Part shown: positions 1,361-9,052 of the stretch, piece by piece
Layout: each line of letters begins with the position of its first letter
Numbering within the stretch: the first letter of the stretch is position 1
Source of the DNA: a virus
Taxonomy: Duplodnaviria; Heunggongvirae; Uroviricota; Caudoviricetes
Reading direction: 5' to 3' (one strand)
Length of the DNA stretch: 9,170 nt
Virus record (IMG/VR): IMGVR_UViG_2554235184_000006
Program-made: the position numbers and the translations under genes
The notes under the pieces: model-generated
Databases searched by the model: none
What the model saw: the letters and a program-made list of their open reading frames with translations, nothing else
Told to the model about the DNA's origin: nothing

Positions 1361-1729
1361 ATGACCGAACGCATAGAATTTGTTTTGCCTTACTCGCCGA
1401 CGGTGAACACTTACTGGCGACGCCGTGGCAGCACATATTTTGTATCAAAAGCCGGGGAGCGTTATCGCCGGGCAGTGGCGCTTATTGTTCGCCAGCAGCG
1501 ACTGAAATTAAGCCTGTCCGGACGGCTGGCAATAAAAATTATTGCAGAGCCACCGGATAAGCGTCGTCGTGACCTGGACAATATTCTGAAAGCACCACTG
1601 GATGCGCTGACGCACGCGGGGTTGTTAATGGACGATGAGCAGTTTGATGAAATCAATATTGTACGTGGCCAGCCAGTATCTGGTGGACGGCTGGAGATAA
1701 GAATTACAGAGGTGGGTGTGCATGAATAA
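1361..1729 (+). CDS. rusA: RusA-family Holliday junction resolvase, 122 aa
   Basis: Translation contains the conserved RusA acidic motif PDKRRRDLDN and ends GGRLEIRITE, closely matching E. coli RusA as I remember it (PDRRRRDLDN...GGRLELTITE). Size and position just upstream of Q are typical. Confidence 0.9.
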   Translation: MTERIEFVLPYSPTVNTYWRRRGSTYFVSKAGERYRRAVALIVRQQRLKLSLSGRLAIKIIAEPPDKRRRDLDNILKAPLDALTHAGLLMDDEQFDEINIVRGQPVSGGRLEIRITEVGVHE

Positions 1730-2411
1730 CCAGTATTTACAGTTTGTTCGTGAGCAACTCATGATTGCCACTGCAGATCTCAGTGGGTCGACAAAATGCC
1801 AGCTGGAAGCCTGGCAGGAAAATGCCCTGTTCGATACAGGGCGTTACAGACGCAAAAAAATTCGTTACCGCGATGAGGTAACCGGAAAAATGATCACGCG
1901 GGATAATCCCCCGATCCAGGGTAAACAATCACTGGCGAAAGGCTCATCAATTGCGCTGGTCAGTCCTGTTGAGTTTGCAACATCATCGTGGCGGCGTGCT
2001 GTTCTGGAACTGGAAGAACATCAGAAGGCGTGGTTGTTGTGGTGTTATGGCGGAAACATTTGCTGGGAGCATCAGATCGCGATAACGCAGTGGGGGTGGA
2101 GTGAATTTAAAACTCAGTCCGGCTCCAGAAAAATTGCAGTGAAAACGCTGGAGCGTGTGAAGAAGTTGATCTGGCTGGCGGCACAGGATGTCAGAGGATG
2201 GGTTACCGGGTGTGAGGTCTACCAGAGACAGGAGCTTGCCAGACTGTGTGGAGTTAAGCCTGATAACTGGAGCCATAATTATGCGAACTACTGGCGTGAG
2301 ATGTGCGATATTTTTAAGCGCCTCGATAGAGAATCCTTGATTTGCTCCGTGAAAATAAGAGCGCAACAAAAAGCGACCTTTTCACGACGAGATATTGCAA
2401 AAGTCAATTAA
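1722..2411 (+). CDS. Q: Late-gene antitermination protein Q (phage 21/82-type), about 229 aa
   Basis: ATG at 1722 overlaps the rusA stop (TAA 1727-1729), indicating translational coupling; the ORF track's GTG at 1716 is a less likely start. Sits directly upstream of a promoter-like region, intrinsic terminators and the lysis cassette. N-terminus MNNQYLQFVREQL matches my recollection of QuuQ-type Q proteins. Family assignment not verified. Confidence 0.7.
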   Translation: MNNQYLQFVREQLMIATADLSGSTKCQLEAWQENALFDTGRYRRKKIRYRDEVTGKMITRDNPPIQGKQSLAKGSSIALVSPVEFATSSWRRAVLELEEHQKAWLLWCYGGNICWEHQIAITQWGWSEFKTQSGSRKIAVKTLERVKKLIWLAAQDVRGWVTGCEVYQRQELARLCGVKPDNWSHNYANYWREMCDIFKRLDRESLICSVKIRAQQKATFSRRDIAKVN

Positions 2412-2835: not shown

Positions 2836-3134
2836 GTGGTAAATGGGCGGCTGGTGGGTGTGGTGGTTGTTGCTTTCCCGTTGCTGAAAAAGAAAACGCC
2901 AGACTGTTAGCCGGGTATCAGTTAGCGGGAGAAATTTTTAAATACTTCACAATTCAGGCGGTTGACTGTTGTCTGGTTTGCGGGGAGTTTGTTAAAAGAA
3001 ACTGGCATGGTGAATCCCCCTGTGCGGAGGGGCAATCAGCGAGTAGGTATATGGGATAATCGCGGATTCAGGTGCTGGTACTGAATTCACCGGGAGGCAC
3101 CCGGCACCATGCAATGGCACATAGCGCCACTCTC

Positions 3135-3170
3135 CAGCCCCTCTCCGGAGGGGCTGTTTATATTGATTTT
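3135..3170 (+). terminator. Rho-independent terminator at the edge of the AT-rich island
   Basis: Perfect 9-bp stem CAGCCCCTC (3135-3143), loop TCCG, GAGGGGCTG (3148-3156), followed by TTTATATTGATTTT. Sits between upstream + strand transcription and the 3' end of the minus-strand gene 3191..3526. Confidence 0.6.
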
Positions 3171-3190: not shown

Positions 3191-3526
3191 TTATGGACTT
3201 TGTTGTTTTAGCCCATAAGGACATATTTGCAGAGTGCAACGGTTATTAAAGCATTCATTCAATACGTTATCTGTATTTGTAGGGCATTCCTGGCTGTTTT
3301 TGATTAAATTCCAGAATGTTTTATTGAATGGTACTACGTTGTAAATGGTTACAGGTAGCACTTTGTTATTGAGCATGATACCTGTGTGAGTCAGTGTAAA
3401 TATACTTTCAGGAGGTAAGAAAGCATCCGATTGATACCAGATTATTAATTTTATTTTACTCCATATGACTGAAAAAGATATTCCGCATGATGGCTGGATA
3501 ACTGTATCAATCACAATCCACTTCAT
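3191..3526 (-). CDS. Hypothetical Cys-containing protein in an AT-rich island, 111 aa
   Basis: Minus-strand ATG (3524-3526) with AAGGAA RBS 5-6 nt upstream. Composition is strongly AT-rich compared with flanking phage genes. Opposite orientation to the late operon. Six Cys, four of them in the C-terminal [26 protein letters not shown]. No family recognised. Confidence 0.55.
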
Positions 3527-3975: not shown

Positions 3976-4217
3976 TACTACGTCATCGTACTGGCCCGGC
4001 ATTCCAGGCCATAAAAGACGGTCTGGCAGTGGGACTAAATGCACTGACGCTGACGGATATTACCAAAAATGCAACGTATGGCGTTGAGATAGAAAGTCTG
4101 GTGCTGGAGATAAATGCACCGGCATCATCATAAAAAGTGAGCCAGTCAAATGGAAGGTATCGTTAAACTCACCGGTAGTGTCAGTGGGTCGTCTGAGACG
4201 CCTGCATGAGTTATCAG

Positions 4218-4250
4218 AGCCATCAGTACTTAACTGGTGGCTTTTTTATT
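4218..4250 (+). terminator. Rho-independent terminator immediately upstream of the holin gene
   Basis: AGCCATCAG (4218-4226), loop TACTTAA, CTGGTGGCT (4234-4242; 9 bp with one G-U pair), then TTTTTTATTGTTG (4243 onward). Confidence 0.65.
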
Positions 4251-4282: not shown

Positions 4283-4498
4283 ATGTACCAGATGGAAAAA
4301 ATCACAACAGGTGTGTCATACACCACGTCAGCGGTGGGAACGGGCTACTGGTTCCTGCAGTTGCTGGACAGGGTTTCCCCGTCTCAGTGGGCGGCAATAG
4401 GCGTGCTGGGGAGTCTGCTGTTTGGGCTGCTGACATATCTGACTAACCTGTATTTCAAAATCAAAGAGGACCGGCGTAAGGCGGCGCGGGGAGAGTAA
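4283..4498 (+). CDS. S: Class II pinholin (phage 21 S21-like) with dual-start motif, 71 aa
   Basis: ATG 4283 and ATG 4292 (M-Y-Q-M) with GGGAGA RBS (4271-4276). Translation ...[66 protein letters not shown] closely matches the S21 pinholin as I remember it, with two TMDs and a charged C-terminus. The track ORF 4178..4498 is an upstream in-frame extension that spans the terminator. Confidence 0.85.
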
Positions 4499-4502
4499 AG
4501 TG

Positions 4503-5393
4503 ATGAATAAAAAATATGAACTGGTTGTTAAGGGGATAAATAATTACGGGGATAAGGTTACTGTTACTGTGAAGTCGGAAGGTGACGGGCAAGCGTCGCT
4601 GTTGTTGCCAGATGTGGCGATTAGTCTTGACCGTACTGAAGGTGCCACGCTGGAGTTTTACGAAGCTGAGGCGAAAAAGCAGGCGAAGCAGTTTTTCATG
4701 GATGTTGCTGCCGGGTTATGTGAATGGAACGAACCGTTGCCGGAAAAGCGCCCCGTAATTTTAGAGGCGCAGGATGTGTTGATAACCTACAAAGGAAAGC
4801 TACCGGGAAGAATTACTTGTTCTCTGAAGATGCCGCCGTCAACACTGCGGTCAGAAAAAGATGATGTTGAATCACGTATTGAAAAACTGGAGAGCTACGT
4901 CGTTGAGCTGAATAAGAAATGGTCGATATTGGTGCCTTCTGGCGATGAAAAGCAGTTTGCTGCGTTTGACGATTATTGTCGGAAAGTGATGAGCAGAAAT
5001 CTCGCAGAGTGTTTCAGTATTCATAATGATAATTTCAGTGACCCGGAATGGGAGTGTAACCGGCCATCCTTTGTTGTATCCGGTGATGCTGGGAAAATAA
5101 CCATCTCAGAAAATGGGAAAGTAACACCTCCATCGCACCAGCACAGTGAGGAGCTCATTGAATTTGCCATTGATTACCTGAAGAACAATAAAAAGCAGGG
5201 GCTGATGAAGCGCGTTGGCCGTTGCATGGGATATCTTCAGGTAGCCGCTGAGATTGAAGCGCTGGCCAGTGGTGCTGATAAGGATGCAATTGTGCGGGAG
5301 GCTCTTCTTCGTGATTTTAATACTCCACCCTTTAAAAAAGTGCCGGCTTACTGGCTTCATCCGGGGCTGACTTATCTTAAAGTGCGTATTTAG
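4503..5393 (+). CDS. Hypothetical hydrophilic protein inserted between holin and endolysin, 296 aa
   Basis: ATG 4503, 5 nt after the holin stop (TAA 4496-4498), with GGGGAGAG RBS (4487-4494); stop TAG 5391-5393. Long uninterrupted ORF with no TM segment or signal peptide and a K/E-rich composition. No family recognised. Confidence 0.7.
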   Translation: MNKKYELVVKGINNYGDKVTVTVKSEGDGQASLLLPDVAISLDRTEGATLEFYEAEAKKQAKQFFMDVAAGLCEWNEPLPEKRPVILEAQDVLITYKGKLPGRITCSLKMPPSTLRSEKDDVESRIEKLESYVVELNKKWSILVPSGDEKQFAAFDDYCRKVMSRNLAECFSIHNDNFSDPEWECNRPSFVVSGDAGKITISENGKVTPPSHQHSEELIEFAIDYLKNNKKQGLMKRVGRCMGYLQVAAEIEALASGADKDAIVREALLRDFNTPPFKKVPAYWLHPGLTYLKVRI

Positions 5394-5429
5394 TGGGCCA
5401 GGGACAGCGGCTGAATATTTAATATATCC

Positions 5430-5963
5430 ATGAACACCAAAATCAAATACGGCCTGTCGGCTGCCGTTCTGGCGCTGATTGCCGCTGGTGCGCCTGCGCC
5501 TGACATTCTCGACCAGTTTCTGGATGAAAAGGAAGGCAACCACACCACGGCATACCGTGATGGTGCAGGTATCTGGACCATCTGCCGTGGTGCCATCATG
5601 GTGGATGGCAAACCTGTCGTTCCGGGCATGAAGTTGTCGAAGGAAAAATGCGACCAGGTTAACGCCATTGAGCGTGATAAAGCGCTGGCGTGGGTGGAGA
5701 AAAACATCAGAGTGCCGCTGACCGAACCCCAGAAAGCGGGGATCGCGTCATTCTGTCCGTACAACATTGGTCCCGGTAAGTGTTTCCCGTCGACGTTTTA
5801 CAGACGAATTAATGCTGGTGATCGAAAAGGTGCCTGCGAAGCGATTCGCTGGTGGATTAAGGACGGTGGCAGAGACTGCCGTATTCGTTCAAACAACTGT
5901 TACGGTCAGGTATCCCGTCGTGACCAGGAGAGCGCGCTGGCGTGCTGGGGTATCGACAGATAA
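5430..5963 (+). CDS. R: SAR endolysin (phage 21 R-type true lysozyme, GH24), 177 aa
   Basis: N-terminal Gly/Ala-rich weakly hydrophobic segment GLSAAVLALIAAGAPAP typical of a signal-arrest-release domain. Catalytic E-8aa-D-5aa-T spacing is present in EGNHTTAYRDGAGIWT. Overall similarity to P21 R and DLP12 RrrD-type lysozymes, from memory. Confidence 0.9.
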   Translation: MNTKIKYGLSAAVLALIAAGAPAPDILDQFLDEKEGNHTTAYRDGAGIWTICRGAIMVDGKPVVPGMKLSKEKCDQVNAIERDKALAWVEKNIRVPLTEPQKAGIASFCPYNIGPGKCFPSTFYRRINAGDRKGACEAIRWWIKDGGRDCRIRSNNCYGQVSRRDQESALACWGIDR

Positions 5964-6119
5964 GCAGAATATTTTGCTGAAAAATGAGGAATGGCCACGC
6001 GGGCGGATAACACGAAATCCTGCGAACTGGCGAAACGTAAGTGAATAAAAGTAAAAACCCCGTTTGTTGGCACCAAGCGAGGTTTTGTGTTTCTGACCTT
6101 GAGTAAGGCAAGGGAGAAC

Positions 6120-6302
6120 ATGGCGAAGTGTAAACGAATTCTGTTGAGGTTGACTATGAAAAATGGCCTTGAACTGAAAGCGCCTGTAACTGATGACATC
6201 AGCAGAGCACTGGCTTTTGCCATTAAGTGGGTGGCGGTCGGTGTTGCTGTGTCCCCGATGCTGTATGGGCTGGCAAAACTGGTCATTGCGTTGAAATCGT
6301 GA
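6120..6302 (+). CDS. Small protein with C-terminal hydrophobic segment, 60 aa (alternative start 6156)
   Basis: ATG 6120 with AGGGAGA 2-3 nt upstream (short spacing); an alternative ATG at 6156 has GAGG at 6146-6149. C-terminal [27 protein letters not shown] is TM-like. Stop TGA 6300-6302 overlaps the strong RBS of the next ORF. Family unknown. Confidence 0.4.
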
Positions 6303-6316
6303 AGGGAGGATTAAGC

Positions 6317-6448
6317 ATGTCAGACAAACTCATAACGCTGGCGAAGATCCTCTGTGTAATTGTCGGCATTTCATTTTCACTAATGCTGGTTGCTCTTTTT
6401 CTTTCCATGGCCTGGATGATGTTGTCTTCGTCGGGGTTGCTGGGGTGA
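6317..6448 (+). CDS. Small hydrophobic membrane peptide, 43 aa
   Basis: ATG 6317 with strong RBS GGGAGGA (6304-6310). Translation [43 protein letters not shown] is almost entirely one long hydrophobic stretch. Stop TGA 6446-6448 overlaps the alternative Rz GTG start. Confidence 0.5.
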
Positions 6449-6456
6449 ACATAAAC

Positions 6457-6918
6457 CGAATGCTTTCCGCGTTTATCGTTATTCTGCTGGTGGCCTGTGG
6501 TGCGCTGTGGATGGCAACAGACCATTACCGTGATAACGCGATTACCTACAAAGCGCAGCGCGATAACAAAGCCAGTGAACTGAAGCTGGCGAACGCAACC
6601 ATTACTGATATGCAGGTGCGCCAGCGCGATGTTGCTGCGCTCGATGCAAAATACTCGAGGGAATTAGCCGATGCGAGAGCTGAAAATGAAACTCTTCGCG
6701 CTGACGTTGCCGCTGGTCGTAAGCGCCTGCGGATCAACGCCACCTGTCCAGGCTCCGTGCGTGAAGCCCCCACCACCTCCGGCGTGGATAATGCAACCGG
6801 CCCCCAACTGGCAGACACCGTTACACGGGATTATTTCACCCTCAGAGAGCGGCTGATGACGATGCACAAGCAACTGGAAGGGGCACAGGACTATATCCGC
6901 ACTCAGTGCCTGAAATAA
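6457..6918 (+). CDS. Rz: Rz i-spanin (inner-membrane spanin subunit), 153 aa
   Basis: Translation ...[71 protein letters not shown]...[19 protein letters not shown] is nearly collinear with lambda Rz as I remember it. N-terminal TMD present. Start is ATG 6457 or in-frame GTG 6445. Confidence 0.85.
6671..6856 (+). CDS. Rz1: Rz1 o-spanin (outer-membrane lipoprotein), embedded in Rz in the +1 frame, 61 aa
   Basis: ATG 6671 with GAGGGA RBS (6657-6662). Lipobox-like VVSAC followed by the proline-rich [14 protein letters not shown], matching lambda Rz1. Fully nested inside Rz, the classic spanin arrangement. Confidence 0.85.
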
Positions 6919-7228: not shown

Positions 7229-7555
7229 ATGAAAAGACGCCTTTTACTACTTTTTCTGTTATCTGTCCTGGCAGTGGGATGCTCGCAGCAAAAAGCTGAT
7301 GAGCCCCGGCAATTAGTGACGGTGTATCCACGATATCCGGAATATGCTGCAGCAAATTATATCAAGGGGCTGGTTGAGGTTAAGTTCGATATTGGTGCTG
7401 ATGGGACTGTGACACGGATCGTTTTTCTCCGCTCAGAGCCTCATAATTTGTTTCGTGATGAAGTGGTGAAGGCCATGGCGAAATGGCGATTTGAAAAGAA
7501 TCGCCCCTGTCAGGGAGTGAAGAGACAATTTATCTTTACGCCGTCACGTCCTTGA
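7229..7555 (+). CDS. Lipoprotein with TonB C-terminal-like domain, 108 aa
   Basis: ATG 7229 with AGGAA RBS (7219-7223). Signal peptide MKRRLLLLFLLSVLAVGC with a relaxed lipobox. The mature part YPRYPEYAAANYIKGLVEVKFDIGADGTVTRIVFLRSEPHNLFRDEVVKAMAKWRFEK fits the TonB_C pattern (compare E. coli TonB GQVKVKFDVTPDGRV...FEREVKNAMRRWRYEP). The track ORF 7175..7555 is an N-terminal extension without RBS. Confidence 0.7.
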   Translation: MKRRLLLLFLLSVLAVGCSQQKADEPRQLVTVYPRYPEYAAANYIKGLVEVKFDIGADGTVTRIVFLRSEPHNLFRDEVVKAMAKWRFEKNRPCQGVKRQFIFTPSRP

Positions 7556-8506: not shown

Positions 8507-9052
8507 ATGAAGGTTAATAAAAAGAAACTTGCCGAAATTTTCAACGTGGATCCGCGAACGATTGAACGCTGGCAGTCTCAGGGACTCCCTTGCGTCTCCG
8601 GAGGTGGTAAGGGCGTTGAATCTGTATTTGATACCGCCATGGCAATTCAGTGGTATGCGCAGAGGGAAGCTGATATCGAAAATGAAAAACTCCGTAAAGA
8701 GGTTGAGGATTACAGGGCTGCCAGTGAGGCAGATCTCCAGCCTGGGACTATTGAGTACGAACGCCATCGACTTACGCGTGCGCAGGCCGACGCACAGGAG
8801 CTGAAAAATGCCAGAGACTCCGCTGAAGTGGTGGAAACCGCATTCTGTACTTTCGTGTTGTCACGGATCGCAGGTGAAATTGCCAGTATTCTTGACGGGA
8901 TCCCTCTCTCGGTACAGCGGCGTTTTCCGGAACTGGAAAACCGACATGTTGATTTCCTGAAACGGGATATCATCAAAGCCATGAACAAAGCAGCCGCGCT
9001 GGATGAACTGATACCGGGGTTGCTGAGTGAATATATCGAACAGTCAGATTGA
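8507..9052 (+). CDS. nu1: Terminase small subunit (Nu1-like), 181 aa
   Basis: C-terminal two-thirds ([74 protein letters not shown]...[43 protein letters not shown]) is nearly identical to lambda Nu1 as I remember it. The N-terminal wHTH domain is recognisably related but divergent. Confidence 0.9.

Follow-up and report, generated by a model that had tools for sequence, protein, structure and literature searches.

A long-form YdfR-family gene between the holin and endolysin genes in the late region of an Escherichia coli lambdoid prophage

The best-described relative of the gene considered here is ydfR (b1555, P76160) of the Qin prophage of Escherichia coli K-12, which starts 4 nt past an S21-type holin gene and is followed by a lysozyme gene in the arrangement essQ-ydfR-rrrQ. 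In a 2026 study, residues 1-72 of YdfR were recovered three times in a two-hybrid screen and shown to bind the catalytic N-terminal half of RNase E, as well as RNase G (PMC13232886). Full-length YdfR interacted with Rne 1-597, and Rne 1-598 co-eluted with Strep-YdfR together with DNase-resistant nucleic acid, although the authors left standing the possibility that a contaminating protein retained the RNA (PMC13232886). The same study reported that ydfR is essentially unexpressed in K-12 in standard growth, and that its overexpression changes few transcripts and leaves growth unaffected (PMC13232886). In one further screen, overexpression of ydfR raised the streptomycin MIC threefold (PMC12924614).

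Modulation of RNase E by phage proteins has precedents in T7 gp0.7, T4 Srd and phiKZ Dip (PMC4980113). Among these, Srd binds the catalytic N-terminal half of the enzyme (PMC4980113), as reported for YdfR. For all three, effects on RNA decay have been demonstrated, whereas overexpression of YdfR had little effect (PMC13232886). They also differ from the protein studied here in that we could not find any homology between them, and its PHROG matches all lack an assigned function. A precedent of another kind is LydB of phage P1, a soluble antiholin with no transmembrane segment that is encoded directly after its holin, in a late operon with a SAR endolysin (PMC9025707). LydB resembles our protein in all these respects, but unlike any member of the YdfR family it has a demonstrated lysis-delay phenotype. 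We considered homology to LydB and rejected it (HHalign probability 0.1%, BLASTP E 2.9).

Closer in sequence are two proteins of Shiga toxin phages, gp05 of the Stx2-converting phage 86 (YP_794052, 268 aa, annotated as ‘YdfR family protein’) and BCI50300 of Stx2_95 (329 aa). Both show the same succession of N-terminal, middle and C-terminal modules and the same position between holin and endolysin, with 70-78% overall identity to our protein, and they differ from it in the middle module, which is replaced in gp05 and carries a 33-aa insertion in BCI50300. Finally, a set of ‘hypothetical proteins’ of Salmonella enterica (e.g. P0248, P0268 and P0241) have the same three parts and lie beside the lysis genes in the same late operon, but have only about 28-44% identity, give no Pfam DUF1327 match, are encoded 5' of the holin and in some cases contain a CxxxCxxC insert. 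Two comparative papers on Stx phages make no mention of the gene.

The stretch of DNA analysed here (the window, 9,170 nt) comes from an E. coli lambdoid prophage, of which it forms the late region. Its genes include one for a DUF968/HNH protein (302-1360), a putative RusA ORF (1361-1729), so called from its position and our reading, and the Q antiterminator gene (1716-2411, plus strand; Pfam Phage_antiter_Q, E 2e-82), whose product we presume, from lambdoid biology, to activate the late transcript carrying the lysis region. A consensus scan places a terminator-like hairpin just 3' of Q (2473-2498, matching on both strands), which is a candidate tR'. A second terminator-like hairpin, with a 12-bp stem and a T-run (4216-4244, plus strand), lies about 40 nt 5' of the holin start and would be read through under Q antitermination.

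The stretch between Q and the holin is variable. At 2976-3165 (plus strand) it contains a strong match to the sRNA family STnc100 (Rfam RF02076; 132 bits against a gathering score of 47), which ends in a GC-rich hairpin at 3135-3156. A minus-strand ORF of 111 aa (3191-3526) lies in an island of low GC (0.31-0.35, compared with about 0.5 in its surroundings), matches phrog_4407, a family with no assigned function, and has promoter-like sites on its own strand at 3634-3606 and 3475-3448. No Pfam or PADLOC match was obtained for this ORF, which looks like a classical moron.

The lysis region proper begins with an S21-type class II holin, or pinholin (Phage_holin_2_1 / P21 holin S, 71 aa; 4283-4498, plus strand; Pfam PF04971, E 7e-33), which is 80% identical to K-12 EssQ. 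It is followed by the gene under study (4503-5393, plus strand), and by a Phage_lysozyme endolysin of 177 aa (5430-5963, plus strand; Pfam PF00959, E 2e-24) with its own leader ATATATCCATG and a Gly/Ala-rich, hydrophobic N-terminus that, read from the sequence, is typical of SAR endolysins. The i-spanin gene Rz (6445-6918, plus strand; Pfam Phage_lysis, E 2e-47) contains an embedded Rz1-like ORF (6671-6856, from the ORF list). The 480-nt gap between endolysin and Rz harbours two small hydrophobic ORFs on the plus strand (6087-6302 and 6317-6448), which match phrog_1115 and phrog_4906, respectively, neither with an assigned function. They have no Pfam match, and could be extra membrane-active lysis accessories or morons. 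Further on lie a lipoprotein-like ORF with a TonB_C domain (7229-7555, plus strand; beginning MKRRLLLLFLLSVLAVGC, Pfam E 7e-13) and Nu1 (8507-9052). PHROGs names the former a ‘Rz-like spanin’ (phrog_1267), a label that looks misleading because the true Rz and its embedded Rz1-like ORF are found at the positions given above.

The gene of interest extends from an ATG at 4503 to a TAG at 5391-5393, for a product of 296 aa. Starting at the in-frame GTG at 4500 would make it 297 aa long, but the length recorded in RefSeq for the identical gene (891 nt) fits the ATG. The holin stop codon TAA (4496-4498) is separated from this ATG by the spacer AGTG (4499-4502), the ATG beginning at the fifth base past the stop. 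A Shine-Dalgarno-like sequence, GGGGAGAG (4488-4495, plus strand), whose GGAG core is 9 nt from the ATG, lies within the 3' end of the holin gene and serves as the ribosome-binding site for translation of the protein. By consensus scan, we could find neither a plus-strand promoter-like site nor a convincing terminator in the stretch from S through this gene to R, nor any plus-strand promoter-like site between Q and R, and the natural reading is therefore that the gene would be co-transcribed with the lysis genes from the Q-dependent late promoter. The encoded protein is soluble in character (GRAVY -0.41, pI 5.95), and its Kyte-Doolittle hydropathy, taken over 19 residues, peaks at 0.75, well under the requirement for a transmembrane segment. 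A preliminary description of this DNA, made from the sequence alone, had reported a hydrophilic 296-aa ORF devoid of transmembrane segments between a pinholin and a SAR endolysin, starting 5 nt after the holin stop on its own ribosome-binding site and set up for co-expression with the lysis genes, and all of these points are borne out. Membership of a membrane antiholin or holin class is rejected on the basis of this hydropathy and of an AF2 model made of soluble alpha/beta modules.

The same description had left the protein unassigned, unable to place it in any family by eye. We found instead that its residues 1-100 score 137.9 bits with Pfam DUF1327 (PF07041), where the cutoff is 25 (E 1.3e-40, over positions 1-88 of the 93 in the profile), and that residues 1-296 match the phrog_1085 profile end to end (positions 1-296, E 3.1e-190). 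RefSeq annotates identical DNA as ‘class II holin family protein | YdfR family protein | lysozyme’ and uses the name ‘YdfR family protein’ for the gene in hundreds of genomes, and the gene is thus already catalogued. The homologous N domain is 47% identical to that of K-12 YdfR over residues 1-74 (BLASTP E 6e-21). Whereas K-12 YdfR has 103 aa and the N module only, with a stop codon overlapping rrrQ, the window gene encodes 296 aa and is followed by a 36-nt spacer. We are almost certain that it encodes a full-length member of the YdfR/DUF1327 family, which comprises soluble accessory proteins of lambdoid prophages in Escherichia, Shigella and Salmonella. Searches of NCBIfam and of PADLOC, which covers defence systems and not anti-defence, gave no match. 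None of the nine PHROGs matched by the protein has an assigned function or belongs to the ‘lysis’ category, and the same applies to the Salmonella relatives.

The family is common in E. coli and very restricted outside it. Among 5,426 complete E. coli genomes, megablast matches some part of the gene in 2,703 and at least 80% of it in 496. Phage records with a protein-level match to the family number 106, against 434 records with this type of holin, and include many Stx1a, Stx2c and Stx2a phages, YYZ-2008, mEp460 and PhiR5_1; the long form is rarer, occurring in three phage records. In an exhaustive profile search of 1.84 billion representatives we obtained only 111 clusters, and a scan of one genome per species yielded three loci, in Escherichia and Shigella only. 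The position of the gene had been viewed in the preliminary description as an unusual insertion into the canonical S-R pair. This view does not hold, as the same slot is filled in K-12 Qin, Stx phages and mEp460, and the survey of S21-type cassettes reveals a widespread and annotated family.

The junctions in related loci are informative on how the gene is wired into the cassette. The order holin-X-R is found in 86 of 100 related loci, and the junction made of a stop codon plus 4 nt in 76 of the 89 loci where a holin precedes the gene. The phage Stx2a_F723 has an identical holin and no YdfR gene, and its R starts 4 nt past the S stop on the same GGAGAG. As this ‘empty’ cassette uses for R the very GGAGAG and 4-nt spacer that also precede ydfR in K-12 and mEp460, the YdfR gene occupies the start site that is coupled to S. 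The R genes located 3' of a YdfR gene have their own conserved leader, the one given above for the window, which is kept in K-12 rrrQ and in YYZ-2008.

These two endolysin start contexts (window 5394-5432; L106 1717-1723; also L102 and L003) are accompanied by different N-termini: an R coupled directly to S begins MSRKFRYG, and an R that follows a YdfR-family gene begins MNTKI(K/R)YG. The window holin begins MYQM (4283-4294) and does not have the Lys of the MKSM start of K-12 EssQ. In phage 21, this Lys is the source of the additional positive charge on the longer form, the antiholin. Some cassettes with the MYQM allele have a YdfR gene downstream and others have none. In relatives, the space between the YdfR-family gene and the next lysis gene often contains an ORF of 86-105 aa on the minus strand (3902-4189 in L004-L007; 4881-5141 in L011-L013; 4832-5149 in L017; 3084-3344 in L103); the L004 copy matches phrog_10490, with no assigned function, and in one record the ORF is annotated ‘DUF1823’. 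No such ORF exists at this place in the window. The gap between endolysin and Rz in related prophages holds ant or an N6/N4 DNA methylase gene (L002 6060-6629; L005 5342-6277; L014 5501-6445). Such lysis cassettes are general landing sites for accessory genes.

Alignments and pairwise mapping divide the long form into three modules. The N module corresponds to DUF1327 (residues 1-100, 4503-4802, plus strand; to residue 112 by alignment), with a core at about residues 1-75. It occurs in two deeply divergent allele classes and has a hypervariable loop at residues 24-38. The middle module (residues 120-176, 4860-5030, plus strand) is predicted to be a helical hairpin or coiled coil; other alleles have lost it, have a different segment in its place or carry it with 33 additional aa. 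The C module (residues 177-296, 5031-5390, plus strand) is the most conserved part, with the motif GRCMGYLQVAAEIEA...DFNTPPFKKVP..W..PG..YLK.RI, and gives no Pfam match of substance even at E<=10. All the invariant residues of a 62-sequence alignment fall in this module (H214, L226, G239, G243, L245, Q246, A249, I251, P276, K278, W284, P287, Y291 and R295), while R240 and A248, invariant in an 18-sequence alignment, are more than 90% conserved in the larger one.

The modules are combined in several ways. Across 107 sequences (106 fetched loci plus the window), N and C are fused in 89, N stands alone in seven, C stands alone in five, and the two are split in five. Many of these loci had been collected with C-module patterns, so that long forms are over-represented in the set. 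Split forms consist of two genes on the same strand, in the order C then N in four of the five cases. Three E. coli proteins (P0047, P0054 and P0063) contain two tandem DUF1327 domains each.

A first AF2 model, built from 38 sequences, was too weak to use (pLDDT 49.6). The second, from 62 sequences including those of Salmonella, averaged a pLDDT of 62.6 and gave N and C modules good enough to use. It predicts three beta strands and a long helix for the N core (residues 5-73, pLDDT 66-87), disorder at residues 72-120, two helices in the middle (112-146 and 149-170, pLDDT 54-60), and three strands plus helices in the C module (pLDDT 71-91 for residues 185-270). The Foldseek comparison proposed in the preliminary description could be run on this model, but it yielded no characterised relative, the best match being at E 0.6 in the PDB, and at E 0.01, to an uncharacterised protein, in BFVD. 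A search of the PDB with the single protein sequence returned only LSm3 at E>1, and profiles of the separate domains returned nothing below E 0.03. The full-length profile did match a ParM fusion (E 1.6e-5), which we judged compositional because single-copy ParM chains do no better than E 0.03 and because the aligned part is the charged, helical middle. We also rejected an internal repeat of N and C, both of which are beta-beta-beta-alpha, as HHalign gives it a probability of 0.1-0.2%.

The unannotated Salmonella enterica proteins came from a word-indexed search and form a divergent branch with the same N-middle-C architecture as the E. coli long form. HHalign relates the N domains of the two branches with a probability of 91.5% (E 8.5e-7) and the C modules with 99.95%. 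Because the architecture is shared and the two terminal parts are homologous, the long form is ancestral. In Salmonella and in one further lineage the gene lies 5' of the holin, with S overlapping R, and at one Salmonella locus a holin of a different family stands beside it. Some of the Salmonella C modules contain a Cys-rich insert, CESECERC (residues ~258-266 of P0150), that is absent from E. coli alleles and may be a metal site specific to this branch.

Pairwise comparison of 37 distinct alleles gives a dN/dS of 0.31 for the N core and 0.39 for the C module. In the same loci the holin has 0.09 and the lysozyme 0.08, so that the constraint is three to four times weaker than that on the two lysis genes. 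A value of about 1 obtained for the middle module was discarded as meaningless, since the alleles carry non-homologous replacements there. Purifying selection on both the N and C parts, along with homologues at about 30% identity in Salmonella, argues that the gene is more than a chance ORF, while the contrast with the lysis genes indicates an accessory gene and not a core component of lysis. A core role in lysis is also opposed by the absence of the gene from about three quarters of the phage records with this type of holin, among them one whose holin is identical, by its varying position relative to the holin, and by the co-residence of ant and methylase genes in these cassettes.

These observations against a core lysis role lead us to favour a host-factor binder, and the binding of the catalytic half of RNase E by K-12 YdfR residues 1-72 suggests which factor this might be. 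We tentatively propose a late-expressed modulator of RNase E or of host RNA, as a possibility that we would not yet call likely. Late in infection, the protein would act in the cytoplasm, outside the lysis machinery; the DUF1327 domain would serve as a targeting module for RNase E or RNA, joined through the variable helical linker to the C module, which would be an effector or a second binding surface. The outcome would be an altered RNase E-dependent RNA decay during expression of the long late transcript. We infer by analogy with YdfR that the window allele may bind RNase E, with a consequence in phage growth.

Several points speak against RNase E as the target. The interaction data come from one screen and concern a homologue that is just 47% identical in the relevant domain, and the co-purification of YdfR with RNase E may be RNA-bridged. 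With a pI of 4.8, the N core of the window allele is acidic, an unusual property in a protein that binds RNA, and sequence, profile and Foldseek searches of PDB and BFVD revealed no similarity to characterised proteins. To our knowledge, the phage modulators of RNase E are early or persistent proteins and not genes of lysis cassettes. Modulation of RNase E also leaves the long form unexplained, since the C module is the best conserved part, yet is missing from most phage copies.

The main rival is a cytoplasmic regulator of lysis timing, i.e. a soluble antiholin-like factor or one that restrains the SAR endolysin, like P1 LydB or T4 RIII. Its synthesis would keep pace with that of the pinholin, and it would make triggering later or sharper. 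The gene keeps its place beside the lysis cassette in E. coli, Shigella, Salmonella and one further lineage across sequences that are about 30% identical, and in E. coli it holds the S-coupled start site; LydB offers a precedent for an antiholin without transmembrane segment encoded immediately after its holin (PMC9025707). Moreover, a CPRG screen for envelope leakiness lists the Keio mutant of ydfR (PMC3879167 supplement), although this phenotype could be polar, with the resistance cassette driving the downstream rrrQ. However, neither the position of the gene relative to the holin nor, at one Salmonella locus, the family of that holin is conserved, an identical holin allele functions in cassettes devoid of the gene, and constraint is relaxed in comparison with holin and lysozyme. 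The failure to relate the protein to LydB or to any ‘lysis’ PHROG, and the presence of ant and N6/N4 methylase genes inside these same cassettes, which shows that they also house non-lysis genes, further lead us to consider a timing role unlikely.

A late counter-defence or arms-race factor directed against a host- or prophage-encoded system, with module shuffling as a sign of diversifying pressure, is in our view distinctly improbable. Such a role would fit the strong mosaicism of the family, whose modules are fused, split, permuted, duplicated or alone, its two N-domain allele classes and hypervariable loop, its dN/dS raised relative to neighbouring genes, its very narrow taxonomic range, and the antirepressor, methylase and HicAB genes found in neighbouring slots. 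However, dN/dS is well below 1 in both conserved modules, and no PADLOC family was matched, in a library of defence and not anti-defence systems. Lambdoid late regions are mosaic in general, and counter-defence genes are usually expressed early.

We give equally little credence to evolutionary filler, a recombination-prone hitch-hiker in a late-operon hot spot, or to a moron benefiting the lysogen: truncated, split and fragmentary copies are many, most S21-type cassettes do without the gene, and K-12 ydfR is essentially silent in standard growth and nearly so in its effects when overexpressed (PMC13232886), but both conserved modules are under purifying selection, invariant residues are kept between E. 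coli and Salmonella, intact copies reside in plaque-forming phages, and no plus-strand promoter was found from which a lysogen could express a moron.

As a finding in this window the gene is ordinary, since an identical one is already catalogued. What we add is modest: the three-module architecture, a conserved C-terminal domain common to unannotated Salmonella proteins, the occurrence of split and permuted forms, the observation that the gene has taken over the S-coupled start site, and the contrast in selection with the lysis genes. The value of the observation lies in pointing to a neglected and experimentally tractable family with an undescribed C-terminal domain. Few gene sets in virology are understood as well as the holin-endolysin-spanin cassettes of lambdoid phages, and a YdfR-family gene is wired into the cassette in about half of complete E. 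coli genomes, including K-12, and in many Shiga-toxin phages. If the family modulates RNase E, it would represent a temperate lambdoid example of the takeover of RNA decay, a strategy of which T7, T4 and phiKZ have been the sole examples to date (PMC4980113). Should it act on the timing of the pinholin, burst size would be altered and so, in Stx phages, would the release of toxin.
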